Below the pieces are notes generated by a model. The model made no database searches. It was not told where the DNA came from and saw only the letters and a program-made list of their open reading frames with translations. Both the position numbers and the translations under genes were made by a program. A stretch of DNA of 64,000 nucleotides from Candidatus Anstonellales archaeon (lineage in GTDB: Archaea; Micrarchaeota; Micrarchaeia; Anstonellales; J096), in assembly GCA_038890615.1 (NCBI GenBank), contig JAWAFI010000001.1, positions 465,536 through 529,535 of the forward strand, read 5' to 3'. Positions 38,574-62,119 of this stretch are shown in pieces. The stretch's first letter is position 1; every line of letters begins with the position of its first letter.

Positions 38574-38632
38574 GCCCAGCGAAACATTTAAAAATATTGG
38601 CGACTATGCTTTTCCAGCTAAAGGTGTTTTCT
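38574..38632 (+). promoter_or_regulatory. tuf promoter and RBS (TATA-like catttaaaaatatt at 38584-38597; SD aggtg at 38622-38626)
   Basis: An A/T box and SD lie immediately upstream of the MAKKEH ATG at 38633. Confidence 0.4.
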
Positions 38633-39904: not shown

Positions 39905-39908
39905 TGGG

Positions 39909-40214
39909 ATGAGCCAGGCAAGGATACTCCTTACAGGAGAGAGCCCAAAAGACATTGAGAGCGTAATATCCCAGATAGTTGAGATAGCAAAGGCCCTTGA
40001 CATGAAAGTCAAGGGCCCTGTCGCGCTTCCAAGGAAGAAGCTTAAAATTGTGACAAGGAGGACTCCTTGCGGTGACGGCTCAGACACCTACGAGACATGG
40101 GAGAAGAGGCTTTCCAAAAGGTTCATAGATGTAGAAGGAAGCGAGAAGGTAATAAAGCAGATACTCAGGGTTAAGGTGCCAGAGGGCGTTTTCGTAAAGA
40201 TACTGCTTAAATAA
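39909..40214 (+). CDS. rps10: 30S ribosomal protein S10 (uS10)
   Basis: RILLTGESPKDIESVISQIVEIAKALDMKVKGPVALPRKKLKIVTRRTPCGDG is the S10 signature. tuf-rps10 gene order is conserved. Confidence 0.9.
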   Translation: MSQARILLTGESPKDIESVISQIVEIAKALDMKVKGPVALPRKKLKIVTRRTPCGDGSDTYETWEKRLSKRFIDVEGSEKVIKQILRVKVPEGVFVKILLK

Positions 40215-40423: not shown

Positions 40424-41215
40424 ATGGGTATTTTTTGGAAAAAAAATAAGAAAGAGGAAAATCAAAAGCCAAGAAGGAAACCTTTCAATACCTTTCAGGT
40501 TTCAGAGAAAATCCCTACAGAAGAAGAACTCAAAGAGGAATTTAGGGGGCTTTACAGCTTTATACTACTAGAAAGAGTTAGGGCTAGAAATTTGTCAGAT
40601 CCAGCTGTAACAAAGGAAGCAATTGAGAGGGCAAGGGAAGGAATAGAAAACTTCCCTTCTTCAGAATCATCCGCTAAGCACATCTCATCTTCATTCAAGC
40701 TGCTTTATGAATATACTGAGAAACTCCCTCACTATCTTTCCAATGCTGATTTGCTTGCCATCTTAAGCTGCATCTTGGCTTACAAAAAACACCTATTATC
40801 CTCAGATAATGGCGAAGAGCACAAAAAAGTTATTTCTTTGATAGAGCTTATTCTCAAAAGGATGGGCAAATTGTTTTTAGAAAGAAGCAAAGATTGGAAG
40901 CTAACAAGGAGGATAGGGCAAAATCCTGACATAGAAAAGGTGAATAAATTGCTTTCTTGCCAACTTGAGCTTATTCCTCAGAAAAGCATGCCTACTGACT
41001 TTAATGTAAGCAAACAAAACTTAGAGAAGGTTTTTGGTGCGCTTGAGCGCTCAGCAGAGATATCAGCTCAGCTGCTAAGCATGCCAGAAGAAGAGCTAAG
41101 CAAGGACAGCAAAGGATATGGGGAATCATTAGGCCTTATTTCAGAAATATTTTTAAGGGCCTCCAATGCCTTTTCTCGGTATAAAATATCTGAGGTAATC
41201 CAAAAGCATTTTTAA
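40424..41215 (+). CDS. Hypothetical alpha-helical protein, 263 aa, in a visibly AT-richer block
   Basis: It is a long ORF with no recognisable domain. A sharp drop in GC is visible from about 40230 to about 41230. Confidence 0.4.
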   Translation: MGIFWKKNKKEENQKPRRKPFNTFQVSEKIPTEEELKEEFRGLYSFILLERVRARNLSDPAVTKEAIERAREGIENFPSSESSAKHISSSFKLLYEYTEKLPHYLSNADLLAILSCILAYKKHLLSSDNGEEHKKVISLIELILKRMGKLFLERSKDWKLTRRIGQNPDIEKVNKLLSCQLELIPQKSMPTDFNVSKQNLEKVFGALERSAEISAQLLSMPEEELSKDSKGYGESLGLISEIFLRASNAFSRYKISEVIQKHF

Positions 41216-45267: not shown

Positions 45268-47577
45268 ATGGCAGAAAAGGGCCTAACACTTAAGCAGGTT
45301 GAGCAGAGCAGGGAAAGGCACGGAAGGAATATAATTGAGGAGAGGCAGAAGACGCTGCTCCACTTCATTGCAGACCAGTTCAGGAATACTGTGCTCTATC
45401 TGCTCATTGCAGCAGTTGCCATCTCGTTCTTTATAGGCGAGGAGCTTGAGGCAATAGGGATAGGTGCTGCAATAGTTCTTACCATTGCCTTTGGAACTTA
45501 CCTTGAGTACACAGCAGACAGGAGCGTTAGGGAGCTAAAAAAGTACATGGCAGAAGAGGTTGTTGTGATTAGGGATGGCAAGAGGCAGCTCATAAAGGCA
45601 GAGGAGCTGGTAGTTGGGGATGCAGTGCTTATGGAGGAAGGGCAGAGGGTAGCAGCTGACATGAAGCTCATTAGCGGCTTTGTTGAGGCTGATGAATCAC
45701 TGCTTACCGGGGAATCAAAGCCAGTTGAGAAGAAGAAAGGCGACCTTCTTTTTTCTGGGAGCAGGATAGTAGAGGGCTCAGGCACAGCTCTTGTAACTGC
45801 TGTAGGCCCTAAGAGCTCTGCAGGAAGGATTGCAGGTAGCTTAGGCAGCCTTGAGAAAGAGAAGACAAACATAGAGGCAATGCTAGAGGATTTGGGCAGG
45901 AAGATAAGCTATTTTGGCATAGCAGTGATGCTTTTTACAATATTTATATCACTGCTTGCTGGGAAGCCAATTGAGCAGGCTTTTTTATTCTCTATAGCTC
46001 TTGCAGTCGCGGTAGTTCCAGAAGGGCTCGTTACAGTTCTAACAATTGTGCTTGCCTTAGGCGTTAGGGAGATGGCAAACCACATGGCCCTTGTGAAAAA
46101 GATGAGGGCAGTTGAGGAGATAGGGCACATCACAGCGCTTGTTACTGACAAGACAGGTACGCTCACCTATGGAAAGATGAAGCTTGCTGCATTCATAGCG
46201 AATGGGAAAAGGTATCCCCCTGCTGAAATCCCGCAGGAATGGAAAGAAGCAATTGCTGCATGCACACAGGTAGAGGAGACAGACAAGGGCCTTGTTGGCA
46301 ATGAGACAGACAGGGCAATAGTAGAAGGACTGGGAATAAGCCTTAAGGGGATAAAGAAAAGCGTTGTCCTATTGCGACCTTTCAGCAGCACAACCCGCTC
46401 AATGTCAGTCAAGTATAAAGGCAGGGTAATCACAAAAGGGGCCCCAGAGTCAGTTGGGATAAATGCCTCTGATTATGAATCATTAGGCAGGGTGCTTGGG
46501 ATAAAATACGGCAGAAAGGAAGGCATAATAATACTTGAGGATCCAATAAGGGAGCAGGCCCCAGAAGCAGTGCGCAAGCTCCAGCAGGGAGGGGTAAAGG
46601 TAATAGTAGTGACAGGTGACGCATTAGGGACCGCCTCTGCTGTTGCAGACAAGGTAGGCATTTCGGGTAAGGCCGTGCTTTGGGAGGATATAAGAAGGAT
46701 GGATGATGAAAAGCTTGCTGAGCGCTTGGGCTCAATAGGCGTTATTGCAAGGTGCCCCCCAGAAGGGAAGCTAAGGGTAGTTGAGGCACTGCTTAGGGCA
46801 GGTGAGAGGGTGGCTGTATCTGGAGATGGAGTTAATGATGCGCTTGCTCTTAAGAGGGCAAATGTTTCGCTTGTGATGGGAAGCACAGGGACTGCAGTGA
46901 GCAAAGAGATAGCGGACATAGTCCTCCTTGATGACAACATGAGCACCATAGAGGGAGCAGTGAATTATGGCAAGCTCGTTTACAGGAATGTGCTTAATTT
47001 CATAAGGTTCCAACTAACCACCAATGTTGCGCTTGTGGCTTTCATACTGCTTTCATTCTTCTTTTCCCAGAATTACCCCCTTACTGCTCTCCAGTTGCTT
47101 TTCATAAACATAATAGTTGACGGCCCTCCTGCACTTGCGCTTGGGTTTGAAAGGTCAGAGGCAATAACAGAGAAGCCTAAGCTTGACAGGAAGCTAGCAA
47201 GGAGCATAATCCTAGCCGGCCTCTTCATGGCCATCCTTTCTTTCATATGGCACGCCATCGCCCCTTATGAAAAGAAGATTACCTACGCATTCTTGAGCAT
47301 TGCCTCTCTCCAGCTTTTCCATGCATTCAATTGCAGGTCAATGAAGAAAAGCTTTTATGAGGGCTCCAACAATGTGCTGCTAACCACATTTGTTGTTATA
47401 ATGGTTGTTTTAGTGCTTACCTTGTTCGATCCTATTGCTCCTTTCTTCTCCACAGTTCAGCTTTCTCTGCAGGAGATTGCGCTTATATTCATTTCCTCAA
47501 CTGCAGTGCTCGGCTATGGCGAGATAGAGAAGCTTTTCCTTAACAAAAATCAAGGAAGCAGCGAAGCCAGCGGGTAG
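45268..47577 (+). CDS. P-type cation-transporting ATPase (type II-like)
   Basis: It has DKTGTLT phosphorylation, TGES, GDGVNDA and PEGL motifs. The listed ATG at 45247 lies inside the TATA-like ttttaaatgg, so the ATG at 45268 (MAEKGLTLKQ) is the likely leaderless start. Confidence 0.9.
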   Translation: MAEKGLTLKQVEQSRERHGRNIIEERQKTLLHFIADQFRNTVLYLLIAAVAISFFIGEELEAIGIGAAIVLTIAFGTYLEYTADRSVRELKKYMAEEVVVIRDGKRQLIKAEELVVGDAVLMEEGQRVAADMKLISGFVEADESLLTGESKPVEKKKGDLLFSGSRIVEGSGTALVTAVGPKSSAGRIAGSLGSLEKEKTNIEAMLEDLGRKISYFGIAVMLFTIFISLLAGKPIEQAFLFSIALAVAVVPEGLVTVLTIVLALGVREMANHMALVKKMRAVEEIGHITALVTDKTGTLTYGKMKLAAFIANGKRYPPAEIPQEWKEAIAACTQVEETDKGLVGNETDRAIVEGLGISLKGIKKSVVLLRPFSSTTRSMSVKYKGRVITKGAPESVGINASDYESLGRVLGIKYGRKEGIIILEDPIREQAPEAVRKLQQGGVKVIVVTGDALGTASAVADKVGISGKAVLWEDIRRMDDEKLAERLGSIGVIARCPPEGKLRVVEALLRAGERVAVSGDGVNDALALKRANVSLVMGSTGTAVSKEIADIVLLDDNMSTIEGAVNYGKLVYRNVLNFIRFQLTTNVALVAFILLSFFFSQNYPLTALQLLFINIIVDGPPALALGFERSEAITEKPKLDRKLARSIILAGLFMAILSFIWHAIAPYEKKITYAFLSIASLQLFHAFNCRSMKKSFYEGSNNVLLTTFVVIMVVLVLTLFDPIAPFFSTVQLSLQEIALIFISSTAVLGYGEIEKLFLNKNQGSSEASG

Positions 47578-48641
47578 CCTTCTAATTTCCACCGTTTTTC
47601 CTTGAGCCATTCCTTACCGAGCCTTACTATCAGCGCGTGGAATTCCTTGTAGAGCTTAGCATTGCGCGGCAGGGCAGATACGAAGAGCCATGCGTAGTCA
47701 TCATAGGTTTTTCTCTTTATGCCATGCACCTCAAGCATCCTCCTTGTATAAGCATCAACAACAAAGTACGGCTTTCCATAAGCATACAAGAGGATGGAGT
47801 CAGCAGTCTCAGGCCCAACCCCTTCCAGGGCAAGGAGCTCTTCCCTTCCTGCGCTTCTCCTATGCGCTAGGAAAAACCTTGCTATCTTTTTTATCCGCTT
47901 TGCTTTCTGCCTGTAGTAGCCAGAGCTTCTTATTGCTTCCTCTACTGCTTTTAGCTTAGCATTTGCAAGCTTTTCAGGCCTCAGCAGGTCAACTCTTTTT
48001 AGCTCTGCTATCGCCTTTTCTACATTGGACCATGCAGTATTCTGTGTTAGAATTGCCCCAACCATCACCTCAAACCTTGTTTTTGCAGGCCACCATCCCT
48101 GAGGGCCATAATAGGAAAAAAGAACCTTGTAAGCATTCCTAACAAAGGCCTTTTCTCGCACGCTTTCTTTCAGCTCTTTGCTCCAATCAACCTTTTCGCC
48201 CCTGCCTGCCTTGAACATTTTAATCACTTTTTTTGCTGCTTCCTTTGCGCTTATTCCTGTAGTGTCAACCTCAATCGCTTTTGCATAATTCTGCTTTGCT
48301 TTAAGAAAGCAGTAGTCAAGCATCTCTGCTTCAACGTTGATCTCAACCTTTTTAACGCTGTAGCCCCTTTCCCTAAGCCTTCTCCTGAGTTCATCAGGAT
48401 GGCACCTCAATACAACAGCTGTTTTTTCCCCAAAGTTGGCTTCGCACAAAACATGCCCTTCCTTGACACCTTCAAGCCTCTTCATTGATTTCCTAAGGGC
48501 TTCTACGCTAACCTCCCCTTTTTTGATAAGCCCTGCTTTTTTTGCAACATCTGCGCTGCTTATGTAACTTTGCCCAAGGGCCTTTGCAACCTCTTTTGTC
48601 ACTGAGGTTTTACCTGTCCCAACTGAGCCGGTTATTATCAT
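47550..48641 (-). CDS. Fusion protein: N-terminal Fap7/adenylate-kinase-like P-loop NTPase plus C-terminal endonuclease-III-like HhH-GPD domain (start moved to MIITGSVGTGKTS)
   Basis: The N-terminus has the Walker A GSVGTGKTS and a short AK-like core. The C-terminus has LLALEGVGPETADSILLYAYGKPYFVVDAYTRRML, the HhH-GPD hallmark. Confidence 0.6.
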   Translation of the reverse strand: MIITGSVGTGKTSVTKEVAKALGQSYISSADVAKKAGLIKKGEVSVEALRKSMKRLEGVKEGHVLCEANFGEKTAVVLRCHPDELRRRLRERGYSVKKVEINVEAEMLDYCFLKAKQNYAKAIEVDTTGISAKEAAKKVIKMFKAGRGEKVDWSKELKESVREKAFVRNAYKVLFSYYGPQGWWPAKTRFEVMVGAILTQNTAWSNVEKAIAELKRVDLLRPEKLANAKLKAVEEAIRSSGYYRQKAKRIKKIARFFLAHRRSAGREELLALEGVGPETADSILLYAYGKPYFVVDAYTRRMLEVHGIKRKTYDDYAWLFVSALPRNAKLYKEFHALIVRLGKEWLKEKRWKLEGYPLASLLP

Positions 48642-48958
48642 ATGAACCTTGTCCCGCAAGAAGGGCATTGGGTTAGGTAGGCCTCGCTCCTGTAGCCGCA
48701 GATAGGGCATACATAAATGCTCCTTGTCTTGTACCTTTCTGCTGCGAAATCATACTTGCACTTCTTGCACCTTTCTGCATCAAGCTCATTCAGCTCCTTG
48801 CAGTTTGGGCACCTCAATTTGAACATAGTGCTTATATGCGTTCCGCACTTTGGGCACCTTTTCATGTCCAATGTTATTGCTGTGCCGCAATCAGGGCATT
48901 TGTAGGTCTTGCCCTTTTTTGGCAGAATAAAATCAAATAGACCTTCTAAAAGCCCCAT
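48638..48958 (-). CDS. Multi-zinc-ribbon protein (six CxxC pairs), 106 aa
   Basis: It has CPDCG, CPKCG, CPNC, CKKC, CPICG and CPSCG pairs. Its stop lies 3 nt before the downstream kinase/HhH start. Confidence 0.5.
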   Translation of the reverse strand: MGLLEGLFDFILPKKGKTYKCPDCGTAITLDMKRCPKCGTHISTMFKLRCPNCKELNELDAERCKKCKYDFAAERYKTRSIYVCPICGYRSEAYLTQCPSCGTRFI

Positions 48959-49949
48959 AAAGCGCTCCTAAAAGTATGAATGCAGCCCCGCAGGCAGGCG
49001 ATGTGCCTTCAGTAGAGCTTGTTCCCCCACTAGTACCTGTTCCGCTACCCCCTCCACTGCCTCCTGTGCTTCCTGTGCCCCCATTGCCTGTGCCTCCTCC
49101 TATTATGCCACCAATCCCTTGGCACTTTTCATTATAAGAAGCAACTGCATTGCTTAGTGTTGAAAAATCAGACTCCTGCACTGTGCCTGCCTTTATCCTT
49201 GTCCTTATCTCGCTTTCCAAAGAGGAATCGAATTGATTGTTGCAATCCTGCTGCTTTGTCTGCATTATGCTCTCAAAGCGCTGCCAGTTGCCAACGCAGG
49301 CATCAACTTCACTGCTGTAAGTGGCAAGCCTACCTTCTATGTTGGTAACTGCAGAGAATCCCTCTTGAAGCTTGCATTGGGCAACCATGTCTTCTATGTT
49401 TATAAGCTCTGCCTTTATGCCATCAAGGTGGTCGAGTGCATTGCATTCTTTGTTTTTGCCCTTCTGCTCTATCTTTGAGATCTCACCCCTTGCTTTTGCA
49501 ACCTTCTGGAGTATCTGCTGCTCAAGCGCTGTTGCCCAGTGCTCAAAACTTAAGGAGAATGTTTTTAGATACTGATACTGCCCTTCCTCAACTTTAAGCT
49601 GTATCAAGTCTGAGCTGTAAGTGCCATTGCCTTTCCCTCCAAGCTTCAGTGGAAGAACTAGGTTGCATGTTTTTCCTGAAGCCCCTACTGTGCAGAGGAG
49701 CTTGTATTCCCCCCATTCTTCCAAGTAAGTATCGTATAGCCGGTAATACACAGGAGTTGACTTCCCAGGAGAGCTGAACTGGAGCCCAACATCTATTGTT
49801 GCAGGCCCTCCGTTGTCAGCGCAGTTGTTCACCAATGCATTTCCAGTGCCGCCGCTTGTCCCAAGTATTTTCAAAGTTACCTCCATTGGGAACCCTGTTT
49901 GGGAATAAGCCAAAGAGAACAAAAGAACCAAGGCAAGCATTTTTTTCAT
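48933..49949 (-). CDS. Secreted cell-surface protein with Gly/Thr-rich linker and C-terminal TM anchor (sortase-like sorting signal candidate)
   Basis: It has the signal MKKMLALVLLFSLAYSQTG. The C-terminus is GGGTGNGGTGSTGGSGGGSGTGTSGGTSSTEGTSPACGAAFILLGALYGAFRRSI, in the order linker, hydrophobic stretch, then RR. Confidence 0.5.
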   Translation of the reverse strand: MKKMLALVLLFSLAYSQTGFPMEVTLKILGTSGGTGNALVNNCADNGGPATIDVGLQFSSPGKSTPVYYRLYDTYLEEWGEYKLLCTVGASGKTCNLVLPLKLGGKGNGTYSSDLIQLKVEEGQYQYLKTFSLSFEHWATALEQQILQKVAKARGEISKIEQKGKNKECNALDHLDGIKAELINIEDMVAQCKLQEGFSAVTNIEGRLATYSSEVDACVGNWQRFESIMQTKQQDCNNQFDSSLESEIRTRIKAGTVQESDFSTLSNAVASYNEKCQGIGGIIGGGTGNGGTGSTGGSGGGSGTGTSGGTSSTEGTSPACGAAFILLGALYGAFRRSI

Positions 49950-49982
49950 GCGTATTATTAAAAAAAGAGTATTAAATAGCTT

Positions 49983-50591
49983 ATGCTTGCAGCGCTTTTT
50001 TCAGGAGGCAAGGACAGCACGCTTGCAGCGATATGGGCAACAATGCAGGGCTTTGATGTCACGCTAATTACTATAAAGCCAAAGCCTTACTCAATGCTTT
50101 TCCACCATCCAAACCTCCATCTAACTCCTATCCAGGCGAAACTCATGGGGCTTAAGCACAAGTTTGTTGCTTCCAAAGGGAAGGATGAAGAAGCCCTTAA
50201 GAAAGCACTGAAAGGCTTTGAAGGGGTTGTTTCAGGAGCAATAGAAAGCGAGTACCAGCGCAGGATAATAGAGGAAATTGCAGAAGGGCTTGGAATTCCT
50301 TCCTATGCTCCTCTCTGGCACAAGGGCGTCCTTGAAGACGTGAGTAGCCACATGGAGGCTTATGTTTCTGCAGTAAGCGCAGATGGCTTAGGCAAGGAAT
50401 GCCTAGCAAAAAAGTTTCCAGTGAATAGCCTTCCCAAAGGGGTCCACCCTGCGTTTGAAGGAGGGGAAGGGGAAACCTTAGTATGCTATGCGCCCTTGTT
50501 TTCAAAGCGCATAGTGGTTGGCAAGTGGAGGATAGAGTGGGATGGCATAAGGGGGGTTGCCTCTGCTGAAAAGTGGCATCTTCTGCCTTAG
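49983..50591 (+). CDS. dph6: Diphthine-ammonia ligase (Dph6-type PP-loop ATP pyrophosphatase, MJ0570 family)
   Basis: It has MLAALFSGGKDST PP-loop, E..Y and GEGGE motifs. It is 202 aa. Confidence 0.75.
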   Translation: MLAALFSGGKDSTLAAIWATMQGFDVTLITIKPKPYSMLFHHPNLHLTPIQAKLMGLKHKFVASKGKDEEALKKALKGFEGVVSGAIESEYQRRIIEEIAEGLGIPSYAPLWHKGVLEDVSSHMEAYVSAVSADGLGKECLAKKFPVNSLPKGVHPAFEGGEGETLVCYAPLFSKRIVVGKWRIEWDGIRGVASAEKWHLLP

Positions 50592-52128
50592 CCAGAAAAA
50601 TCTTTTGTGGAAAAAGTTAAAAGATATGTTTTTAAAAAGAAGGAACGAGTTTATACACATGGAGCAAGCTAGCAAGGATGAGAAAAGGCAAACCACAAAG
50701 CCCTCAGCCAAGAGCTTTTTTAAAAAGGCGAAGAAGGTTGCTGCGGTTGCCATGTTTTCCTCGTTTATTTTGAGCTTTGCTTCCTTTAGTTGCTTAAATT
50801 ATTTATTGCATGAGGACAGGGCCGGGAAAAAAAGGTACGAAAGGATAGTCGCTGAAAGAGAGAAAAGATTGGACGAAAAATGGTTTGCAGAGATCAGCGA
50901 AGGCAGGATTCCAAAAGAGCTTGCAAAGGCAAGCATAGAGATTGATGAAGTTGGGCAAAGGTACCAGCTTGAGGGCATAATAAAGTCCTACACAAGCTCT
51001 GTTGACCTGAAAAATGCTGAGTCGCCGGAGATCTTTATAGAGCTAAAAGAAAAAGGGGAAACAAAGCTTGTTACGCTTAAGGATGCCAAAGAGATGGAGG
51101 GCTCCATTAACGCAAGGTTGGAAGCACAGATAGAGGAAACCCGCTCATTGTTGGGCTACATTAAAAAATTAAAGGAAGAAGGGAAATACAAAGAAGCAGA
51201 AGAGGCCTTTGTAAGGCTTTCAGATTACCAGAAGGAGATCGACAAAAATGTTGAGGAATTAAAAAAATTTGAATATATATACAACCAATTCCTGAAGGTC
51301 TTTGACGCTTTGGATTTGCTTTTCTCCACTCCGTGCAGCTTTATGGATGGGTTATCATGGGGGCATTTTGTTATCGCAAGGTCTCCGAAGTTTGTGCTAA
51401 GCTTTGATGAAGAAAAAGATGAGCTTACAGGAAAGTTTAGGACTGCCTCTGCGCATGAAAACGAGGTTATAAGGATAAACATAAAATTCTTTGAGGAGAA
51501 GTCGGATGAGCCCTTTAATCTTGCATCTGTAATCGTTCACGAAGCAGCCCACCTATATTTCGACTACGGCCAAATAAATGAGAAGAAGCACCCTTATTCA
51601 GCGCTTGCAAAAACAAAGCTGAAAATATTAGAATGGGACCTAAACCTTTTCGGAGGGCTATACAATCTTTTTGGAAATAAGGAAATCTCAGATAGAACCG
51701 AAGAAGCTTATTCAAGCATCCTTTCTGAGTCAAAAAGGATTGATGAGGACAGCTCTGTTTTGGTAAGCGCCAGGTACATGGAGATGCGTACAACCTACAT
51801 AGAAAAGCTTTTCTTCAGGGATTTTACAAAGAACTATGAAATTCCTCCTGAAAAGCTTGATTGCCTGTTTGCTTACGAAAAAATTCGCTATCCTGTGCAC
51901 AAGAAGAAGGAAGCAGATTTTCTGATTTTCCTGAATTCATTGGAAGAAATTAGGGGTCTTTCTTTTTTGGCTGCTCTGAATTTTTGCTTCCTATGGATTT
52001 TCATTTTAGCGGCTGAGCGCGTAAACAGCTTCTACCAATTAATAAAAGAGCTTATGGGCGCTGGAAAATCTGGGATTAAGCAGAGTGGCAACTCTCTTGA
52101 AGAGAAGTCAAAGGAGCAAGGGCCATAA
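50557..52128 (+). CDS. Membrane-anchored hypothetical protein with HExxH zinc-metallopeptidase-like motif (start possibly MEQASKDE at about 50659)
   Basis: VIVHEAAHLYF (HEAAH at 51538-51552), an N-terminal TM (VAAVAMFSSFILSFASF), a long coiled-coil region, and a visibly AT-rich sequence. Confidence 0.45.
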   Translation: MPLLKSGIFCLSQKNLLWKKLKDMFLKRRNEFIHMEQASKDEKRQTTKPSAKSFFKKAKKVAAVAMFSSFILSFASFSCLNYLLHEDRAGKKRYERIVAEREKRLDEKWFAEISEGRIPKELAKASIEIDEVGQRYQLEGIIKSYTSSVDLKNAESPEIFIELKEKGETKLVTLKDAKEMEGSINARLEAQIEETRSLLGYIKKLKEEGKYKEAEEAFVRLSDYQKEIDKNVEELKKFEYIYNQFLKVFDALDLLFSTPCSFMDGLSWGHFVIARSPKFVLSFDEEKDELTGKFRTASAHENEVIRINIKFFEEKSDEPFNLASVIVHEAAHLYFDYGQINEKKHPYSALAKTKLKILEWDLNLFGGLYNLFGNKEISDRTEEAYSSILSESKRIDEDSSVLVSARYMEMRTTYIEKLFFRDFTKNYEIPPEKLDCLFAYEKIRYPVHKKKEADFLIFLNSLEEIRGLSFLAALNFCFLWIFILAAERVNSFYQLIKELMGAGKSGIKQSGNSLEEKSKEQGP

Positions 52129-52165
52129 GGGAGGTAAAGCAATAAATCCCTTTGCATAGTATATT

Positions 52166-52717
52166 ATGGCGCTCAGGTTCCTTGCTGATGAGATGCTCAA
52201 GAAATTGGCCAAGTGGCTTAGGGTTTTTGGGGTTAATATAGAATATGATTTTGTAGTTGGAAAAACTGATAGGGAGATCATAGAATACGCTAGGAAGAAA
52301 AGATTAATATTTCTTACAAAGGACATGAGGCTGGAGCCCTCTCTTAGGAAAAGAAAGATAAGGCATTTTCTAGTCCACTTCAATGATATAGATGACCAGA
52401 TTGCAGATGTGCTCAGTGCCTTTGGCATAAAGCCTGACTTAAATAAGACAAGGTGCCCGTTCTGCAATGGCATTTTGTACATTACCAAAAAAGCAAGGGA
52501 ATCAGAGGCGCCAGCAGGTGTTAGAAAGAAGAGGAGAAAGTTTTGGAGATGCAGGAAATGCAAAAAGGTTTATTGGAAAGGGGGGCACTGGAAAAACATA
52601 GAAAGGAGGATAAGGAAGGTGCGCACAAGATTAGCCACCAACAGCCTCAAACCTTCTGAGCCCAAAGTTCCACATGAGCGCAAGGAGCAAGGTGCTAAGC
52701 AGGGCCATCACAGCTGA
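52166..52717 (+). CDS. Mut7-C RNase domain (DUF82, PIN-like) protein with C-terminal zinc ribbon
   Basis: MALRFLADEMLKKLAKWLRVFGVNIEYD is the DUF82/Mut7-C N-terminal signature. CPFCNG...CRKCKK is a zinc ribbon. The tail is basic. Confidence 0.75.
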   Translation: MALRFLADEMLKKLAKWLRVFGVNIEYDFVVGKTDREIIEYARKKRLIFLTKDMRLEPSLRKRKIRHFLVHFNDIDDQIADVLSAFGIKPDLNKTRCPFCNGILYITKKARESEAPAGVRKKRRKFWRCRKCKKVYWKGGHWKNIERRIRKVRTRLATNSLKPSEPKVPHERKEQGAKQGHHS

Positions 52718-53401
52718 TGGAAGAAGGGGGCCGCAGTCATTGCTTATGAGCGCTTCAACAGGCAGCGCAGCAACAAAGGCAATCGGTATTATGAAAGAGA
52801 AGAGCACCTGGAATGCTCCCTTGAGGTCGCCAAGGGGCATGTTGCCATACCTAACGAGCGCCCATCCAACCCTCATCAGCGGCTTTGCGACCTTGTCAAA
52901 TACAAGGTAAGTGGCAAGCATTATATTTAGCAGGTTGAACATTATTAAAGCGCCAAGGAGTATCATTACTAAAAAGCAGGCAGTAATCTCCACTCCTGTG
53001 TAGGCGGCGAATGAAAATAGCGCAATCGCGTTAAGCATAAACTGTATTATTCCATAAGGAAACAGGTTCAGGCCGTACATGTAGAAAAGCGGGTGCAGTG
53101 GCTTTGTAAGAATGTTTGAAAGCAGCTTCCTACCTTCCTTCTCAAACCATATCCATATGTCCCAGTATCCCAGCGCATCCATAAATGCAAACATCATGCT
53201 GTAGGACATTGAAAGAATGGTCAGGTATTCAAAGCTCCACCCTGAAAGAAGGTTTTTTCCCCCTCCTGTGACAACATACCACATCGCAGGTGTTATGAAA
53301 ACCCCTATAAGAAGGGTCATTACAGAGTAAACAAGCTCTATGCGGTACTGTTCATACCTTTTCAGGGAATTCAAAAGGAAACGGTAGGCTATTTTAATCA
53401 T
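52631..53401 (-). CDS. ABC-2 family transporter permease (paralog B)
   Basis: It has 6 TM and the C-terminal ...FGLRRFEAVGG, paralogous to the upstream permease (...FEAQGG). The operon includes an ABC ATPase. Confidence 0.6.
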   Translation of the reverse strand: MIKIAYRFLLNSLKRYEQYRIELVYSVMTLLIGVFITPAMWYVVTGGGKNLLSGWSFEYLTILSMSYSMMFAFMDALGYWDIWIWFEKEGRKLLSNILTKPLHPLFYMYGLNLFPYGIIQFMLNAIALFSFAAYTGVEITACFLVMILLGALIMFNLLNIMLATYLVFDKVAKPLMRVGWALVRYGNMPLGDLKGAFQVLFSFIIPIAFVAALPVEALISNDCGPLLPSAVMALLSTLLLALMWNFGLRRFEAVGG

Positions 53402-54139
53402 TTATCCACCCTGCGCCTCAAACACTTTCCATCCTTTATTGTGGAGCACAAAGCCTGCAGAGCCTATAACTAAGCTCCATGCCGCCAGGGCAACGTAGGA
53501 CTCTACCGGGAGATACCCATGGAGAACTGCCTCAACCAAAAAGAAGCCCTTGTGCACAAAAGGGGTTAGTGAAAGGATGCCAAGCATTGCAGGGGCTGCG
53601 AGATATAGCGGGAACATCCTCCCTCCAGTGAGGAGGTCGCTGAACCAGACAACGACCCTTATGCCCCATGTTGTGTGCGTGAAGAAGGTAAAACCGCTTA
53701 TGAGATATGCCAACGAAGCCTCAAGCATCAATGCAAAAGGCACTGAGACAATAAGCACAGGTATACTTACCCATATGCCTAGCATGTGGAGCGCTAAAAT
53801 TCCAACTGCAGCTCCGCTCAGGTAGGGGAGTGCCATTTCACCCAAATCATAGGAAAGCCTGAAAAGGAAAGCGTCAACAGGCTTGGCAAACTGCACATCC
53901 CAACCTTTCCTAATTGCTGTCTGATAGTTGGAGCTTATGGTGTTGTATATGTCCCCTGTAGGGAGAAGCAGGTTGACCACTATGAAGTATGGAAGGAAGT
54001 CGCTACTCGTAAGAAGCCTCCATATTGCGTAAAGAACAACTATGCTTATTAAATAGTAAAGCAGGTCACCCACTATACCTTCTCTGTACTCAAGGTTTTC
54101 CTTAACACCCGCTATGAAAGCCCCTATATACCTTCTCAT
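53402..54139 (-). CDS. ABC-2 family transporter permease (paralog A)
   Basis: It has 6 TM with the same family tail, abuts the next permease, and overlaps the ATPase stop by 4 nt. Confidence 0.6.
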   Translation of the reverse strand: MRRYIGAFIAGVKENLEYREGIVGDLLYYLISIVVLYAIWRLLTSSDFLPYFIVVNLLLPTGDIYNTISSNYQTAIRKGWDVQFAKPVDAFLFRLSYDLGEMALPYLSGAAVGILALHMLGIWVSIPVLIVSVPFALMLEASLAYLISGFTFFTHTTWGIRVVVWFSDLLTGGRMFPLYLAAPAMLGILSLTPFVHKGFFLVEAVLHGYLPVESYVALAAWSLVIGSAGFVLHNKGWKVFEAQGG

Positions 54140-55110
54140 CTGTTACCCTTGTATATCTTTTTCACAATCTCCTCAAGCTCTGGCTCCCTTACGCTTAACG
54201 ACTTCAGCTCATATGCTTTCATTAGCATGTTTAAAGCATCAATCTCCCTTGTTTTTTGCACCTTCCCTGCCACAACATGCCCATTTAGCCTCAGTCCATA
54301 CTTTTTTCCAAGCTTAAGTGCTGCCTTGCTGTCTTTTTGCGAGAGCGTTACTGCCTCTATGTCAACGGTGTTCTCAAATTTTCTCTTCAGTTCTTTTGTT
54401 GGCCCATCCCAAACAATTGAGCCTTCCTTTAGCACTATGCTCCTTTTGCACATGAGCTCTATCTCGCTAAGGTTGTGGGTGGTCATGATTATGGTAACCC
54501 CTTCCCTTCTGTTTATGCTTAAGAGGAAGTCCTGCACAGACTCCTTGACAACTGCATCAAGCCCTATTGTTGGCTCATCAAGGAAAACTACCTTGGGCTT
54601 GTGGAGGAAAATACACCCAATCTCTGCCCTCATCCTCTGCCCGAGCGAAAGCTTTCTTACTGGAACTTCATAGAGCTCATCAAGCCCGAGCATCTTGCCG
54701 AAGAACTTTACCCTTTGGTCAAATAAAGAGTCGCTCAACCCGTAGATGTCCTTCATAAGCAGGTACGAATCAATTACTTTTATGTCAAAAACAAGGTTTG
54801 AGCGGTTGCCGAAGAGGACCCCTATGCGCCTCAGGTATTCTGCCTTTCTCTTCCAAGGTATTTCACCAAGCACCTTTGCTTCCCCTGCATCAGCAACAAG
54901 AACCCCTGAAAGGATTTTGACAAGCGTTGTTTTTCCAGAGCCGTTGGCGCCTATGAGGCCCACGAACTCCCCCTTTTCAACAGAGAAGCTTATGCCCTTG
55001 AGCGCCTCCATCTTCTTCCATCTGTTGAACAAGCCCAACAATCCTTGCTTGCCTGATGGGACGTTGTAGTATTTTCTTAGCCCTCTTATGTTAATTACTT
55101 GCATTAACAT
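54136..55110 (-). CDS. ABC transporter ATP-binding protein
   Basis: It has Walker A GANGSGKTT, the signature LSLGQRMR, Walker B VVFLDEPT and an H-loop. Confidence 0.9.
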   Translation of the reverse strand: MLMQVINIRGLRKYYNVPSGKQGLLGLFNRWKKMEALKGISFSVEKGEFVGLIGANGSGKTTLVKILSGVLVADAGEAKVLGEIPWKRKAEYLRRIGVLFGNRSNLVFDIKVIDSYLLMKDIYGLSDSLFDQRVKFFGKMLGLDELYEVPVRKLSLGQRMRAEIGCIFLHKPKVVFLDEPTIGLDAVVKESVQDFLLSINRREGVTIIMTTHNLSEIELMCKRSIVLKEGSIVWDGPTKELKRKFENTVDIEAVTLSQKDSKAALKLGKKYGLRLNGHVVAGKVQKTREIDALNMLMKAYELKSLSVREPELEEIVKKIYKGNR

Positions 55111-55135
55111 ACTTCATAGCAAATATTAATATTCT

Positions 55136-55459
55136 TTGCCACTTAGTTTTATGAAGCATTCTATTGTTTATATAACCACGGATTCTGAAAAGGAGGCAGA
55201 GAAAATAGCAAAGCTCCTTTTGCGCAGAAGGCTTATTGCGTGCGCCAACATCTTCCCTTGCAAGAGCTTCTTCTGGTGGAACAATAGGATCGCCAAGCAG
55301 AAGGAGTTTATTTTGATATGCAAAACAGAGAATTCCAAGCTTAGTCGAATAAGGGAAGAGGTTAAGAAGGCCCACAACTATGAAATACCTTGCATCTCAG
55401 CAATAGGTTTTTATCCAAACAAAGAGTATGGGCAGTGGCTTGAAAAGCAGCTCAAATAA
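55136..55459 (+). CDS. cutA: CutA1 divalent-cation tolerance protein
   Basis: It has the HSIVYITTDSEKEAEKIAKLLLRRRLIACANI CutA fold signature. It is about 100 aa. Confidence 0.8.
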   Translation: MPLSFMKHSIVYITTDSEKEAEKIAKLLLRRRLIACANIFPCKSFFWWNNRIAKQKEFILICKTENSKLSRIREEVKKAHNYEIPCISAIGFYPNKEYGQWLEKQLK

Positions 55460-56387
55460 GCTTTCTTTCTAAAGTGCTGTCCTTCCTTTGCAGAAGCACA
55501 ACCCTTGAGGGCTCGTGCTCATCAACAACCCTGTAACTGCTTAGCATCTCAAGCTTCTGCGCCCATTCCCTTACTTCGCTGTGCTCCGGGGAATTATCCC
55601 TTCTTAGCCTTTCCCTTGATTGGCCCAAGACCATGTAGGATTTTACTTCAACAAAATCAGCCCTGCTCATATCCACCAGCTTTGCGAATTCATCTATGTA
55701 AGCATCATTCCATCCTTTTATCAATGTTATCCTTATCACCCTGCGCACAGGAAGCTCAATTGAAAGGGTTTTAAGCAGCCTCTGCCAGCCATCAGGGTAT
55801 ACAGAGCGGTTTATAAGCTTGAAAAGTTTTTCATTTGGTGCGCTTAGCGATATGTAAAGCTGGGAAGGCATCTCCTCAAGCTTTGCAAGCTTTTCCGGCT
55901 CCATTCCGTTTGTAACTACAAAGATTGTTTTTGCCCCCCTTCGCTTGAGCTCCTTTATCAGCGCCCCGAGCTTTGAGTAGAGAAGGGGCTCTCCAGAAAG
56001 GCTTATTGCCCAGTGCTCAGGGAACTCACAGTAAGCTTCTTTGAAAATTTTTTCATTCGTATCTTTGTTGCCACCATACCCAGAAAGAAGGTTCTTCCTT
56101 CCTGCAAGGGCTCCTTCTATAATGACATCCGGCTCATCCTCCTCAAACTCGCTTAGCTTCATCCACTCCATTGGCCGCCAGCAGTAGATGCAGTTGTTTT
56201 GGCAATATGCAACAGCAGGGCTAATCTCAGCGCACCTATGGCTTTTTATATTATAGAATTTCTGCTTGTAGCAATAGCCTTTCCCTGTTATGGCTTTCTT
56301 TGTCCAGAGGCACACGCTTACCCCGCTGCTTTTCCCTATTAGCCTGTATATGCTTTGGAATTTCTTCCTTGTTCGCTCATCCATCAT
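55452..56387 (-). CDS. taw1: tRNA 4-demethylwyosine synthase Taw1/TYW1 (radical SAM). Start moved to MMDERTRKKF.
   Basis: It has the radical-SAM CQNNCIYCWR (Cx3Cx2C) and the TYW1 architecture. The listed ORF's first 28 aa overlap the upstream phosphoesterase gene. Confidence 0.8.
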   Translation of the reverse strand: MMDERTRKKFQSIYRLIGKSSGVSVCLWTKKAITGKGYCYKQKFYNIKSHRCAEISPAVAYCQNNCIYCWRPMEWMKLSEFEEDEPDVIIEGALAGRKNLLSGYGGNKDTNEKIFKEAYCEFPEHWAISLSGEPLLYSKLGALIKELKRRGAKTIFVVTNGMEPEKLAKLEEMPSQLYISLSAPNEKLFKLINRSVYPDGWQRLLKTLSIELPVRRVIRITLIKGWNDAYIDEFAKLVDMSRADFVEVKSYMVLGQSRERLRRDNSPEHSEVREWAQKLEMLSSYRVVDEHEPSRVVLLQRKDSTLERKLI

Positions 56388-57013
56388 AGCTTCCTGAATT
56401 TCACTTCTATCTTGCTTCCAACATCTATTATTGCGCACCTTAGCTTCATTGCAGGGGGTAGGTTCACGCAAAGCGTTTCGCCGACCTTTTTCTTTCCCTC
56501 AATCTCGTGCACGTGGCCGAAGAGCGCAAGGCTGGGCTTCCTTAGGTCTATTATCTTGCGCACGCTCCTGCTGCCAGCATGAATGTCATCTACCTCATCA
56601 AGCACCCCAAATGGAGGGCTGTGGAGCACTAGGATGCTTTCCTCGCTTATGGGCAGGTTCTTCATCTGCCTGTATATCTCCTCTTCACTTAGCTCCCCTA
56701 CGGTGTTGTAAGGCGTTGGGCTTGAATAGCCGAACCCAACGAAGCTTAAGCCCTTAATCTTCATTTCCTTGTTGTGGAGCAGTGCATTATGGCGCTTTGC
56801 GATCTCAAGTATTGCAGGAGGGTCGTTGTTGCCAGGCACGAATAAGCAGTTTTCTGCTGTTTCAAAGAACTCCTCCGCGAAATCAGGAGGCCCGTTGTTT
56901 GTTAAGTCACCGCATACTACAGCGTAATCGTAGTCTTTTCCTGCCTTCCATCTGCCAATTCTCTTTATGACTTGCTCCTCTGCATGTATGTCTGCAAGGG
57001 CAAGTAGCTTCAT
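56384..57013 (-). CDS. Calcineurin-like metallophosphoesterase
   Basis: It has the LALADIHA, GDLTNNG, GNND and LHSPP/GHVH metal-ligand motifs. Confidence 0.8.
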   Translation of the reverse strand: MKLLALADIHAEEQVIKRIGRWKAGKDYDYAVVCGDLTNNGPPDFAEEFFETAENCLFVPGNNDPPAILEIAKRHNALLHNKEMKIKGLSFVGFGYSSPTPYNTVGELSEEEIYRQMKNLPISEESILVLHSPPFGVLDEVDDIHAGSRSVRKIIDLRKPSLALFGHVHEIEGKKKVGETLCVNLPPAMKLRCAIIDVGSKIEVKFRKL

Positions 57014-57858
57014 TCCCTCAGCTCCTTGAACCTTTCCTGCAGAGCAGCATTAAGCTTGTCTGCAATATAAGCTCCTTTGTATGCGTCTGCCTTTGCTGCT
57101 ATTGCTATCTTGGCAGCAACTGCCCTTGCCATCTTTCCTTTGTTGCTCCTTTTAACCATGCTTACAAAGGGGTGGTTGAAAATGACACCGTGCTTCGGCG
57201 GGTTGCCCCTTTTATTGTTCCTAAGGAAAGTGAAAAGCGCGTTCTCTGCGCCAAGAAGCTGGATAGTGCTTGCAGGCATCACCGCAAGCTTTTCCAGGGA
57301 GCCTGCTATGCTTATGAGCTGGGCTGCGATTGCTGGAGTAGCAACCTCTGAAACGTTCGGCGCCAATGCCTTCATTAGTTTTTCCATGTAAGCCTGAAGC
57401 TCCTGCTTTTTCTGCTTTATAAACAAAGTAGTATTCGCAACGCTCCTTATTGCTTCAAGGTCCTCAGGGCTTAGGTCTATGCCCATGCTGCTCTTCCTTT
57501 CCTTTCCATCGAGAACGAACTCAAGGTATTTGTCCTTGTCAAGCTTGAGCTCAGGGTAATAGAGCGAATACATTTCGGTGAGGCGCTCAAAAAGCATCGT
57601 CTCAATCTGGTTGTGCTCACCCACTGCCCTGCTAAGGTAGTTTATAAGGAAGCTCCTTGTCCTTATCTCTTCCTTTGCCTTTTCCTTTGCCTTCTTTATC
57701 CACTGCTGCCTCTTGTCCCTTCCTTCTTTATTATGTTTCCACGCTAGTCTTTCATCTGCCCAAGAAGGCCTGCTGCCCCTTTCCCTAAATCTTTTATTTC
57801 TTCCTTTTTTCCATCGGTCTTTCTTCCCCATTGAAAACACCTTAATTGAGCCTGCCAA
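57010..57858 (-). CDS. nop5: Nop5/Nop56-family C/D box sRNP protein consisting only of NOSIC and Nop domains (no fibrillarin-binding N-domain)
   Basis: It has LFERLTEMYSLYYPEL (NOSIC) and the Nop domain ...AAQLISIAGSLEKLAVMPASTIQLLGAENALF...KHGVIFNHP. The N-terminal 60 aa are K/R-rich instead of the usual NTD. Confidence 0.8.
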   Translation of the reverse strand: MAGSIKVFSMGKKDRWKKGRNKRFRERGSRPSWADERLAWKHNKEGRDKRQQWIKKAKEKAKEEIRTRSFLINYLSRAVGEHNQIETMLFERLTEMYSLYYPELKLDKDKYLEFVLDGKERKSSMGIDLSPEDLEAIRSVANTTLFIKQKKQELQAYMEKLMKALAPNVSEVATPAIAAQLISIAGSLEKLAVMPASTIQLLGAENALFTFLRNNKRGNPPKHGVIFNHPFVSMVKRSNKGKMARAVAAKIAIAAKADAYKGAYIADKLNAALQERFKELRE

Positions 57859-57930
57859 AAAGGCACTATAAGGTATGGTGCATTTATTTTAAATAGCTTG
57901 CCATAGGACTTATGGTAAAGAGGTGGTTTA

Positions 57931-59857: not shown

Positions 59858-62119
59858 ATGGCAGCTTTGTTTAAGATGGGGTGGTTGGCAATCTCATTAT
59901 TGCTCCTCATAGGCTCTGCGAACAGCAGCGGCTGTACTATAAGCCCAAGCTCTGCATCTCTCTTTTATGGAGAAACCAAAGAATTTAGCATAACGTGCTC
60001 AGCAGGTGATTGCAGCAGCGTGCTTTCTGAGCCCTTCACAATAGAAACACCCCATTCATTTTCCGCTCGCCTTATCATACCATACGGTAAGTTCTCCCTT
60101 ACAACCTCTCCAACAGGCCAAGGAGAGGATTCTGGCATAGTGAAAGCAAAAGCAACTGCCGAGAACGGCTCAGCAGTGGAATGCACTGCCAACGTTTCAA
60201 TAACCGACACAAAAAACATAACGTGCAGCCTATACGATTTATGGCTCAGCAAAGGAGTAACTACAACAGAAGAGGTTCAATGTTTTGAGTGCATTGCTGG
60301 CCAATGCCGCCCTGTTTTTGGCGGCTGCCAAGAGGCAGTTTCAAAGCCTTTTGCATGGGTCATTAAGCCCAACTCTAATGGAATATCATTAACACCACTC
60401 GACAACTACAATACAGAGGTTGAGATTACTGCAACAGAGGACGTAGGGGAGGATAGGATAATTGAGGCGAGCAGCAGGGACATAGACAACAACTTAGTGT
60501 CATGCTCAGCAACGATACACCAGTACAGGGAGAGAGTTGAGAAGTGCATGGTTATGCCCATCTCCTACTCCTTGCTTTCCCAAACCCCTTCTGTAACCTA
60601 TGGAACAAGATGCGTTGATCCCTCTGGGCTTATAAAAGAGTGCGATAAAGGCCACAGCATAAGGGCAATAGGCCTTTCTTCCCAAAGCTCCCAGCAGATA
60701 ACGCTGCCGTTGGTTGAGCTGAACAAAAGGCCGATAGGGGGCTATCTTATAGTTGCAGAAGATGGAGAATGCTCCTCTTACTTCCATCCTATAATAGCTG
60801 CACCTTTGCCCAACCTAAAGTTCAAGCCGCAATGCACAAAGGACGAGGATTGCAGCAAAGGCAAATGCATTGACGGACTCTGCAGGTTTGAGCAGTGCAG
60901 CATCAAGCCAATAGAAAGGGGCTCTGTAAAATTCTGCTACGAGCAAGAAGGATGCACTCCTACAATCCATTCTTCAACCATGGATAAATTTCTCATGGTT
61001 CCTCTATTTTACACAATAAAGGGCGACAAAGTTTACATCTTAGAAGTTGGTGGTGGTCCACAATCGCGCATAGGTGTTATGGACATATCAGACCCAGCCA
61101 ACCCTAAGCTCCTTTATCAAACCTCACTGCTTAGCTGCGGGGATAGTAAAACGATGGTTGGAATGAGTAGTGTCTCAAATGATAATAAGATAGCTTTTTT
61201 CAATAGGTGTGGCAATCATATAATGATTTATGATACAAGCTCATTTAGAGAATGTGCAGGGGCTCTTCTTGGTCTAATAGTTAGGCCTGAGATCGTAAAA
61301 CTTCAATCAGGAAGATACATATTTGGAGACCTTTTTTACCTTTCAGCTAATGATGAGGCTATACAAGATATGGAGAAGATAGGTATAGATTATGATTATT
61401 GTAGGCCTACATCAATATTTTCAAGCTCAGGCGGTCCAACTAGTTCATCACCAAAGACAGAATCACCAGGGGCTATTGATATAAAGCGGCCACCATATGG
61501 CATGGTAAGAGCATTTGAATATAATGGGCGCACTTACCTCCTTGCACTTGCTTATTCTAATTCTCGTAATGATCCAGATGCAGATGGAGCTATAGGGCTT
61601 TACGATATAACAGATTTTTCCCCATTTTCTAACTCACCGCATCTAGGAATAATAAAAATTTTTGACAAAAAAGAATTCAAGATGGTTGCTACTACTGCAT
61701 CAGCTGTGCGTGATGGAAAGATTTATGTAATGGCCCAAAAACAGCAAGGTGATTATGGTTATAGGCTTTATGTGTTTGACATGAATGGCAATGAATTGGC
61801 TGGCTCCTTAGATTATTGGGATAGCATTCCGTATCTGTTAAGTGTAGATAGCAAATATGCTTATGTATCTTTTATAAGTTCAATACCCATAAAAATAATT
61901 GAATTGGAAACTATGAAGACCATTCCTCTTCCAGATAGATTTGCTCAACACGCTGTACAGGAAGGCTATACTCCCTCTATTACTTATTACCTTATAGGTA
62001 GAGAAAAGAACAACAAGCACTATTTCTTAGTGCCTATATTTTATAAAAATAATGATGGCACACTCTTCTCTACTGTATACACCTCTTTTGAGCTGGTTGA
62101 GGAATGCATTTACATTTAA
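59858..62119 (+). CDS. Large Cys-rich secreted protein (753 aa) with C-terminal beta-propeller-like (LVIVD-like) repeats
   Basis: It has the signal MAALFKMGWLAISLLLLIGSANSSG, 40+ Cys, and repeats such as GGGPQSRIGVMDISDPANPKLLY. The 3' half is visibly AT-rich. Confidence 0.5.
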   Translation: MAALFKMGWLAISLLLLIGSANSSGCTISPSSASLFYGETKEFSITCSAGDCSSVLSEPFTIETPHSFSARLIIPYGKFSLTTSPTGQGEDSGIVKAKATAENGSAVECTANVSITDTKNITCSLYDLWLSKGVTTTEEVQCFECIAGQCRPVFGGCQEAVSKPFAWVIKPNSNGISLTPLDNYNTEVEITATEDVGEDRIIEASSRDIDNNLVSCSATIHQYRERVEKCMVMPISYSLLSQTPSVTYGTRCVDPSGLIKECDKGHSIRAIGLSSQSSQQITLPLVELNKRPIGGYLIVAEDGECSSYFHPIIAAPLPNLKFKPQCTKDEDCSKGKCIDGLCRFEQCSIKPIERGSVKFCYEQEGCTPTIHSSTMDKFLMVPLFYTIKGDKVYILEVGGGPQSRIGVMDISDPANPKLLYQTSLLSCGDSKTMVGMSSVSNDNKIAFFNRCGNHIMIYDTSSFRECAGALLGLIVRPEIVKLQSGRYIFGDLFYLSANDEAIQDMEKIGIDYDYCRPTSIFSSSGGPTSSSPKTESPGAIDIKRPPYGMVRAFEYNGRTYLLALAYSNSRNDPDADGAIGLYDITDFSPFSNSPHLGIIKIFDKKEFKMVATTASAVRDGKIYVMAQKQQGDYGYRLYVFDMNGNELAGSLDYWDSIPYLLSVDSKYAYVSFISSIPIKIIELETMKTIPLPDRFAQHAVQEGYTPSITYYLIGREKNNKHYFLVPIFYKNNDGTLFSTVYTSFELVEECIYI

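Follow-up and report, generated by a model that had tools for sequence, protein, structure and literature searches.

Do a membrane-anchored protein with an HExxH motif and the Mut7-C domain protein encoded directly downstream of it belong together as an acquired unit, or did two unrelated genes come to lie side by side? The question arises from a 64,000-nucleotide stretch of the 558,628-bp contig JAWAFI010000001.1 of a metagenome-assembled Candidatus Anstonellales archaeon from the DPANN class Micrarchaeia (hereafter the window, to which all coordinates refer unless another locus is named), in which a first-pass annotation had described the two genes as an AT-richer island that looked accessory, possibly defence- or toxin-like. 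In our view the probable explanation is that a core Mut7-C gene and a singleton orphan insert, unrelated to each other, lie side by side in this lineage alone, with the AT-richness resulting from protein composition.

The downstream open reading frame (ORF; 52166..52717, + strand; MEM4367066.1) encodes a stand-alone Mut7-C protein of the COG1656 type with 183 amino acids (aa). It matches PF01927 with 128.8 bits (E 2.3e-37, cut-off 23.3), and residues 4-148 align to profile positions 2-145 of 146. The conserved first Asp (D8) and the T-x-D motif (T51, D53) are invariant among nine Mut7-C homologues (alignment A1), as are the cysteines C97, C100, C129 and C132 of the CxxC...CxxC zinc ribbon (52454..52561, +), in full agreement with the initial assignment to Mut7-C (DUF82) with a C-terminal zinc ribbon. 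The nearest relative is P0003, encoded on the 5.5 kb locus L001, with 73% identity. The MUT7-C fold has been described as a reduced domain of the PIN- or TOPRIM-like type that carries a zinc finger (PMC11347159; PMC5499597), RNA binding has been proposed as its ancestral role, with the prokaryotic function given as unknown (PMC11347159), and the archaeal form has been listed as a stand-alone module of unknown function (PMC5499597). The window gene represents the Micrarchaeota orthologue of the archaea-wide stand-alone MUT7-C, in which a four-Cys zinc ribbon is inserted into a reduced PIN/TOPRIM-like domain. The last ~20 residues of the protein are not conserved (183 aa compared to 163 aa in the L001 orthologue), the ORF overlaps a convergent ABC-2 permease gene by 87 nt (52631-52717), and its frame appears to run past the point at ~52670 where colinearity with L001 ends at the edge of a downstream indel (indel 2, see below).

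The genomic context of Mut7-C was compared across archaea by scanning GTDB species representatives with two strict peptide patterns, which confirmed 303 archaeal Mut7-C loci, 80 of which were fetched; the neighbourhood counts cover 84 loci (L001-L084). The gene next to Mut7-C on its upstream side, in the same orientation, encodes ribosomal protein S10 in 38 of these 84 loci (L002, L004-L020, L022, L024, L026, L028-L032, L034, L036, L038, L040, L043, L044, L051, L058, L061, L064, L066 and L077; compare window 38570-40214). All 38 derive from Micrarchaeota, including two unlabelled Logan contigs assigned to this group by close Mut7-C similarity, and the S10 link was seen in no non-Micrarchaeota locus of the set. 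The gap between S10 and Mut7-C is mostly <150 bp, and EF-1alpha is detectable before S10 in 15 loci. Furthermore, dph6, which encodes the enzyme for the diphthamide modification of EF2, precedes Mut7-C in four of the 84 loci; the two genes are directly adjacent in L076, and an unrelated gene with multiple transmembrane (TM) segments lies between them in L041 and L052. The link of Mut7-C to S10 or dph6 is mentioned in neither PMC11347159 nor PMC5499597. Judged from this gene context, Mut7-C appears to be a core gene associated with the translation machinery, a signature unlike that of a defence island, and the linkage to S10/EF-1alpha or dph6 across Micrarchaeota provides a testable hint that stand-alone Mut7-C works with the translation apparatus. 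In L041 (4334-6277), L052 (4309-6276) and L076 (2342-4438), dph6 forms the C-terminal part of a 650-700 aa fusion, the N-terminal part of which starts with MCGI… and looks like an asparagine-synthase/Ntn-amidotransferase domain; in L041 and L076, a convergent alanyl-tRNA synthetase gene comes next.

L001 contains, in this order, dph6, Mut7-C, CutA1, TYW1, Metallophos and Nop, and the window shows the same order with Pfam-confirmed neighbours. The upstream syntenic anchor is the diphthamide synthase gene dph6 (49983..50591, +; PF01902, E 3e-40), the product of which shares 81% amino acid identity with that of L001, and the downstream anchor is CutA1 (55136..55459, +; PF03091, E 6e-29), followed by TYW1, Metallophos, Nop and Pus10. 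The DNA of the window is colinear with that of L001 from 49651 to 50590 (L001 6-945, 80.7% identity) and from 55119 to 57902 (L001 1618-4413, 76.2% identity), and this colinearity at 76-81% is broken by just two indels. The first (indel 1, ~1.5 kb, 50591..52135) contains the HExxH gene as its sole content and is represented by ~104 bp in L001, with blastn colinearity stopping at 50590 and restarting at 52136. The second (indel 2, 52671..55118, - strand) comprises a three-gene ABC-2 transporter operon encoding an ATPase and two permeases (52631-53401, 53402-54139 and 54136-55110; Pfam ABC2_membrane_6 and ABC_tran), in place of which L001 has 31 bp; the GC content at third codon positions (GC3) of this operon is native-like (0.52-0.55). 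Presence/absence polymorphism relative to L001 is consequently a feature of the HExxH gene and the ABC-2 operon and not of Mut7-C, which itself stayed put while both flanks changed.

The 22 nt preceding Mut7-C (AAAGCAATAAATCCCTTTGCAT, 52136..52157, +) are identical to L001 1050-1071 at 21 of 22 positions, compared to 75.6% identity for the Mut7-C coding region, and could constitute a conserved BRE/TATA-type promoter (BRE, B recognition element) for a near-leaderless Mut7-C transcript. As L001 encodes Mut7-C behind the same box without the HExxH gene, neither the location of Mut7-C nor its upstream element depends on that gene. According to the first-pass annotation, its reading would be refuted if the pair were syntenic core genes; such core status applies to Mut7-C, which belongs to the block shared with L001, and not to the HExxH gene. 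Similarly, the suggestion of an accessory locus is borne out for the HExxH gene, which is absent from the closest relative and from all collections searched, and fails for the core gene Mut7-C.

The open frame of the HExxH gene spans 50557..52128 (+) and ends 37 nt before the Mut7-C ORF on the same strand. Its furthest upstream start, TTG 50557, would yield the 523-aa protein reported initially and overlaps dph6 by 35 nt. Alternative starts are ATG 50626 in a Logan gene call (500 aa) and ATG 50659 in the NCBI annotation (50659..52128; MEM4367065.1, 'hypothetical protein'), and the protein most likely comprises the 489 aa encoded from ATG 50659 rather than 523 aa. An A/T box (TTTTTAAAAA, 50629..50638, +) is located 21-30 nt upstream of this ATG and is a possible archaeal TATA box for a leaderless orphan transcript; boxes of this kind also precede other first genes of the window. 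The gene would fill the 1.5 kb that separate the stop codon of dph6 from the promoter box of Mut7-C, the segment missing in the closest relative. It must be held against the assignment of separate promoters that both boxes are known from reading the sequence alone.

The orphan protein begins with a Lys-rich segment followed by a hydrophobic helix at residues 27-46 (50737..50796, +; Kyte-Doolittle maximum of 1.87 in a 19-residue window), which accounts for the N-terminal TM helix noted previously. The long coiled-coil region described at the same time corresponds to an E/K-rich helical hairpin or coiled-coil region at residues 140-223 (51076..51327, +; AlphaFold2 (AF2) helices 140-173 and 177-223), and a further TM helix near the C-terminus, at about residues 431-455 (51949..52023, +; Kyte-Doolittle maximum 2.30), followed by a short Lys-rich tail, had been overlooked. 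The HEAAH motif (residues 294-298, 51538..51552, +; context ASVIVHEAAHLYF) was correctly located and is the sole HExxH in the window proteome of ~19,200 aa. His311 (51589..51591, +) is positioned 13 residues past the motif. Single-sequence AF2 models of the protein are poor, with a predicted local distance difference test score (pLDDT) of 43.2 in the full-length model and 40.2 in the domain-only model, and the hairpin at residues 140-223 is the only segment reaching a pLDDT of 63-75.

Searches for homologues of the orphan returned the protein itself only, both in a word-indexed search of 5.8 billion sequences and, for residues 235-523 (523-aa numbering), in an exhaustive phmmer search of 1.84 billion 50%-identity representatives; the domain alone likewise yielded no homologue at E<=10. 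Homologues were absent from JGI metagenomes, IMG/VR, and phage and plasmid collections (the latter two searched by tblastn), and tblastn identified neither a paralogue in the 64-kb window nor a homologue at any of the 84 Mut7-C loci. PDB sequence searches at E<=10 produced no match, no significant one was obtained with NCBIfam, PADLOC or PHROGs, and weak matches of the coiled-coil type were obtained to ATG17-like and TSG101 profiles. The only other record of the orphan is P0011 on L085, an independent Logan assembly from the same population that is 100% identical over 17.5 kb; this rules out a mis-assembly of the orphan region, and P0011, being 100% identical to the orphan, carries no evolutionary signal. 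By these searches, the orphan is a strict singleton membrane gene, lineage-specific and located between two core genes. Lineage-specific orphans of this sort are common in DPANN genomes, and nothing at this locus departs from known kinds. The locus nevertheless offers a clean case of a singleton orphan membrane gene, apparently with its own promoter, between two core genes in a DPANN genome.

The AT-richer character of the two genes was also described correctly, with GC contents of 0.41 for the HExxH gene (z -2.3) and 0.435 for Mut7-C compared to a window gene mean of 0.459 +/- 0.023. In the HExxH gene, GC at codon positions 1, 2 and 3 is 0.451/0.312/0.465 and the deficit is limited to positions 1 and 2; GC3 values of 0.465 (HExxH) and 0.50 (Mut7-C) compare with 0.497 +/- 0.045 for 63 window ORFs. 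The orphan protein contains 12.5% Glu and 11% Lys and is rich in Leu, Ser, Phe and Ile. As GC is low only at codon positions 1-2 and GC3 is native, the composition mirrors the make-up of the protein and not foreign DNA. The codon-usage comparison that had been proposed as a check for an island thus speaks against one, as GC3 is native in both genes and the HExxH gene has a codon-usage z of -1.0. The 'AT-rich island' signal represents an artefact of amino acid composition.

As to the function of the orphan, the first alternative to consider is that it is a non-catalytic membrane or surface protein of an episymbiotic archaeon, with a structural, adhesion or host-contact role, in which HEAAH occurs by chance; we give this an even chance of being correct. 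The case for a zincin starts from a Pfam SprT-like match (PF10263) at residues 255-311, including HEAAH, with 15.4-16.9 bits (E 0.006-0.017). In silico substitution of H294 or H298 by Ala abolishes this match, E295A costs 4.9 bits, and H311A costs 1.2 bits and draws the end of the alignment back from profile column 84, the column of His311, to column 74, compared to costs of <=0.5 bits for the control mutants H266A and H236A. Ablation of the motif removes the match altogether. The motif also stands in a typically zincin-like context, being preceded by predicted strands and a hydrophobic run and followed by an aromatic residue and, 13 residues on, a His, which argues against chance, as does the fact that global shuffles retaining HEAAH or its 13-mer gave a zincin-family match in 0 of 13 cases; among block shuffles, one of five gave Peptidase_M91 (E 0.062). 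Both low-confidence AF2 models show beta-strands at residues 245-260, upstream of HEAAH, and an all-helical downstream region, and the domain-only model, again of low confidence, places HEAAH in a helix. This predicted layout would be compatible with a zincin and is no evidence for one.

Several observations weigh against a catalytic role and favour a chance motif. The SprT-like score remains below the family gathering score of 25.6. The mutants of H294, E295 and H298 carry nearly all of it, and the score is therefore essentially the motif itself. Unrelated Pfam matches are equally strong, including DNA_pol_B_exo1 (E 0.004), which is found in both the wild type and the motif-less mutant, and CSN8 (E 0.005) in one shuffle; an unrelated match of this strength overlaps the SprT-like one. 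The chance expectation for an HExxH in the window proteome is 0.30, TM and charged helical segments dominate the protein, and the lack of homologues leaves no alignment that could reveal conservation of the motif. Filing the orphan under SprT-like was rejected, as the match falls short of the gathering score and owes its score to nothing but the motif. Taken together, the reading of the orphan as a zinc metallopeptidase, which is derived from sequence features, is a real but minority possibility. If it applied, the protein might use H294, H298 and perhaps H311 or E325 as zinc ligands and E295 as the catalytic base, His311 being a faint candidate for the third ligand. More speculative still, and in our opinion unlikely, is the proposal that the orphan could be the first known representative of a new zincin family, minimal in form and tethered to the membrane, in which a pair of TM anchors and a helical stalk are combined with a catalytic HExxH...H/E module. 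It would have been fixed recently in one Anstonellales lineage and would act at the cell surface, for instance where a DPANN episymbiont meets its host.

Our committed guess is that the orphan is a lineage-specific, membrane-tethered surface protein. It would be tethered at both ends by its N- and C-terminal TM helices and would present the charged helical hairpin together with a ~200-aa region bearing HEAAH. The ambiguous topology given by the positive-inside rule counts against this placement.

A second alternative concerns the history of the insert. The orphan might be ancestral at this site and have been deleted in the L001 lineage, with the absence of homologues due to extreme divergence or poor sampling. 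In favour of such a loss, there is a single close relative only, the native-like GC3 fits a long-resident gene, and L041 and L052 show that the slot can be filled, as they carry an unrelated protein of 221-232 aa with 4-6 TM segments between dph6 and Mut7-C. However, dph6 and Mut7-C are directly adjacent in both L001 and L076, no remnant of the orphan ORF was found in the L001 dph6/Mut7-C spacer, and the exhaustive phmmer search detected no homologue, however divergent. We consider a loss unlikely, and a gain of the orphan in this lineage is more parsimonious because of the direct adjacency in L001 and L076. Two points limit this conclusion: the choice between gain and loss rests on one close relative and three distant ones, and L001 is only 5.5 kb long, such that a divergent copy of the orphan elsewhere in that organism is excluded solely by the database-wide search.

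Much less survives of the idea that an HExxH protease and a Mut7-C RNase form a horizontally acquired, defence- or toxin-like two-gene island, which we regard as very improbable. It draws on the adjacency of the genes on the same strand, 37 nt apart, on the lower GC of the region, on the lack of the HExxH gene in the sister genome and on the prediction that some bacterial Mut7-C-like clusters (COG4634, PIN_10, PIN_16) are toxins of toxin-antitoxin (TA) systems (PMC5499597). Yet the sister genome keeps Mut7-C in place with its conserved upstream box, the protein belongs to PF01927/COG1656 and lies outside the TA-type clusters, and the gene is linked to S10 in 38 of the 84 loci. The two genes do not recur as a pair either: an HExxH homologue occurs beside none of the 84 Mut7-C genes, and L001 has Mut7-C alone. 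Neither protein has a PADLOC match at E<=0.1, the GC3 values and the codon usage are native, and there were no phage, plasmid or viral matches. Hallmarks of mobile elements are missing as well, with no repeats above chance, no tRNA or other RNA genes and no integrase at the borders of indel 1, and the nearest tRNA gene is 27 kb away. A 12-nt pair, CATAAGGG(G/A)GGT at 50546 and 52124, was considered as a target-site duplication and rejected as being at chance level, with ~5 such pairs expected in 2.1 kb. The proposal of a defence or toxin island is largely refuted by the syntenic core status of Mut7-C in combination with these results, and annotations should avoid presenting the Mut7-C gene at this locus as part of a toxin or defence system.

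Finally, that the 489-aa ORF is a chance ORF or an assembly artefact and no real gene is scarcely credible: although it has neither homologues nor a Pfam domain, its frame is open for 1.47 kb in DNA of 41% GC with a coding-type GC1>GC2, its codon-usage score (z -1.0) differs from those of spurious ORFs (z -3.4 and -4.4), antisense ORFs in the region are short only, and two independent assemblies agree fully.

Returning to Mut7-C, the gene lies in a block of conserved housekeeping genes for translation and RNA modification (dph6, Mut7-C, CutA1, TYW1, Metallophos, Nop and Pus10), and in most Micrarchaeota it would be found directly behind EF-1alpha and S10. Based on gene context and the domain literature, Mut7-C is most likely an RNA-binding, possibly RNA-cleaving factor tied to the translation apparatus. 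It would serve as an accessory factor in RNA metabolism connected with translation, and a promoter of its own would drive its expression. Against a cleaving role it must be said that we know of no demonstration of nuclease activity for any prokaryotic Mut7-C.

Other genes of the window also deserve mention. The S10 gene of the window (39909-40214) precedes not Mut7-C but a 263-aa ORF (40424-41215) without a Pfam match, whose GC of 0.381 is the lowest in the window and whose GC3, in contrast to that of the HExxH gene, is low as well (0.376, z -2.7). This ORF, which occupies the usual Mut7-C slot, is a better candidate than the HExxH gene for recently acquired DNA. A 753-aa ORF (59858-62119) is likewise compositionally deviant and orphan-like, with no Pfam match, a GC of 0.423 and a GC3 of 0.392 (z -2.3). 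Next to dph6, the window encodes a 338-aa protein without a Pfam match (48933-49949, -), which carries a signal-like segment at the N-terminus, a linker rich in Gly, Ser and Thr, and at the C-terminus a hydrophobic anchor (…SPACGAAFILLGALYGAFRRSI) that resembles an archaeal C-terminal sorting signal; the portion visible in L001 is 93% identical, well above the neighbouring genes. Furthermore, a 386-aa single-ORF fusion (47550-48710, -) joins an AAA_18/adenylate-kinase-like P-loop domain to a base-excision domain of the HhH-GPD (endonuclease III-like) type.

Among known systems, the window Mut7-C most closely resembles the stand-alone archaeal MUT7-C proteins (PF01927, COG1656), such as the Thermococcus eurythermalis protein described as a minimal fold (PMC11347159). 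It shares with them a length of ~150-180 aa, a full-length Pfam match, the N-terminal Asp, the T-x-D motif, the CxxC...CxxC zinc ribbon and the absence of fused domains. Nothing essential differs, apart from the ~20-aa non-conserved tail that extends into the convergent ABC-2 gene and the position behind dph6, whereas S10 precedes Mut7-C in most Micrarchaeota. The bacterial Mut7-C-like toxin clusters (COG4634, PIN_10 and PIN_16) are related only distantly through the reduced PIN-like fold, on which a toxin-like reading would rest. They are separate families paired with antitoxins such as DUF433, whereas the window protein, which has a zinc ribbon, truly belongs to PF01927, lacks any antitoxin-like partner and resides in a housekeeping context.

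The orphan shares with the minimal zincins of the SprT-like/Spartan/Wss1 type an HExxH that follows a hydrophobic stretch and short strands, and its best Pfam match covers the HEAAH segment and stays below the family cut-off. In human SPRTN, which we use as a lead only, the ligands are H111, H115 and H130, and the spacing of 15 from H115 to H130 resembles the 13 residues from the motif to the downstream His of the orphan. In addition, the orphan lacks a zinc-ribbon or DNA-binding module, its two TM helices and coiled-coil-like hairpin are atypical of SprT proteins, and it has no homologues that could confirm the ligands. A further parallel is provided by the lineage-specific orphan membrane proteins of DPANN archaea, which are likewise singletons, membrane-anchored, highly charged and encoded between conserved core genes. 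Unlike such proteins in general, the orphan described here contains a single HExxH in a zincin-like context, which may hint at an enzymatic role.

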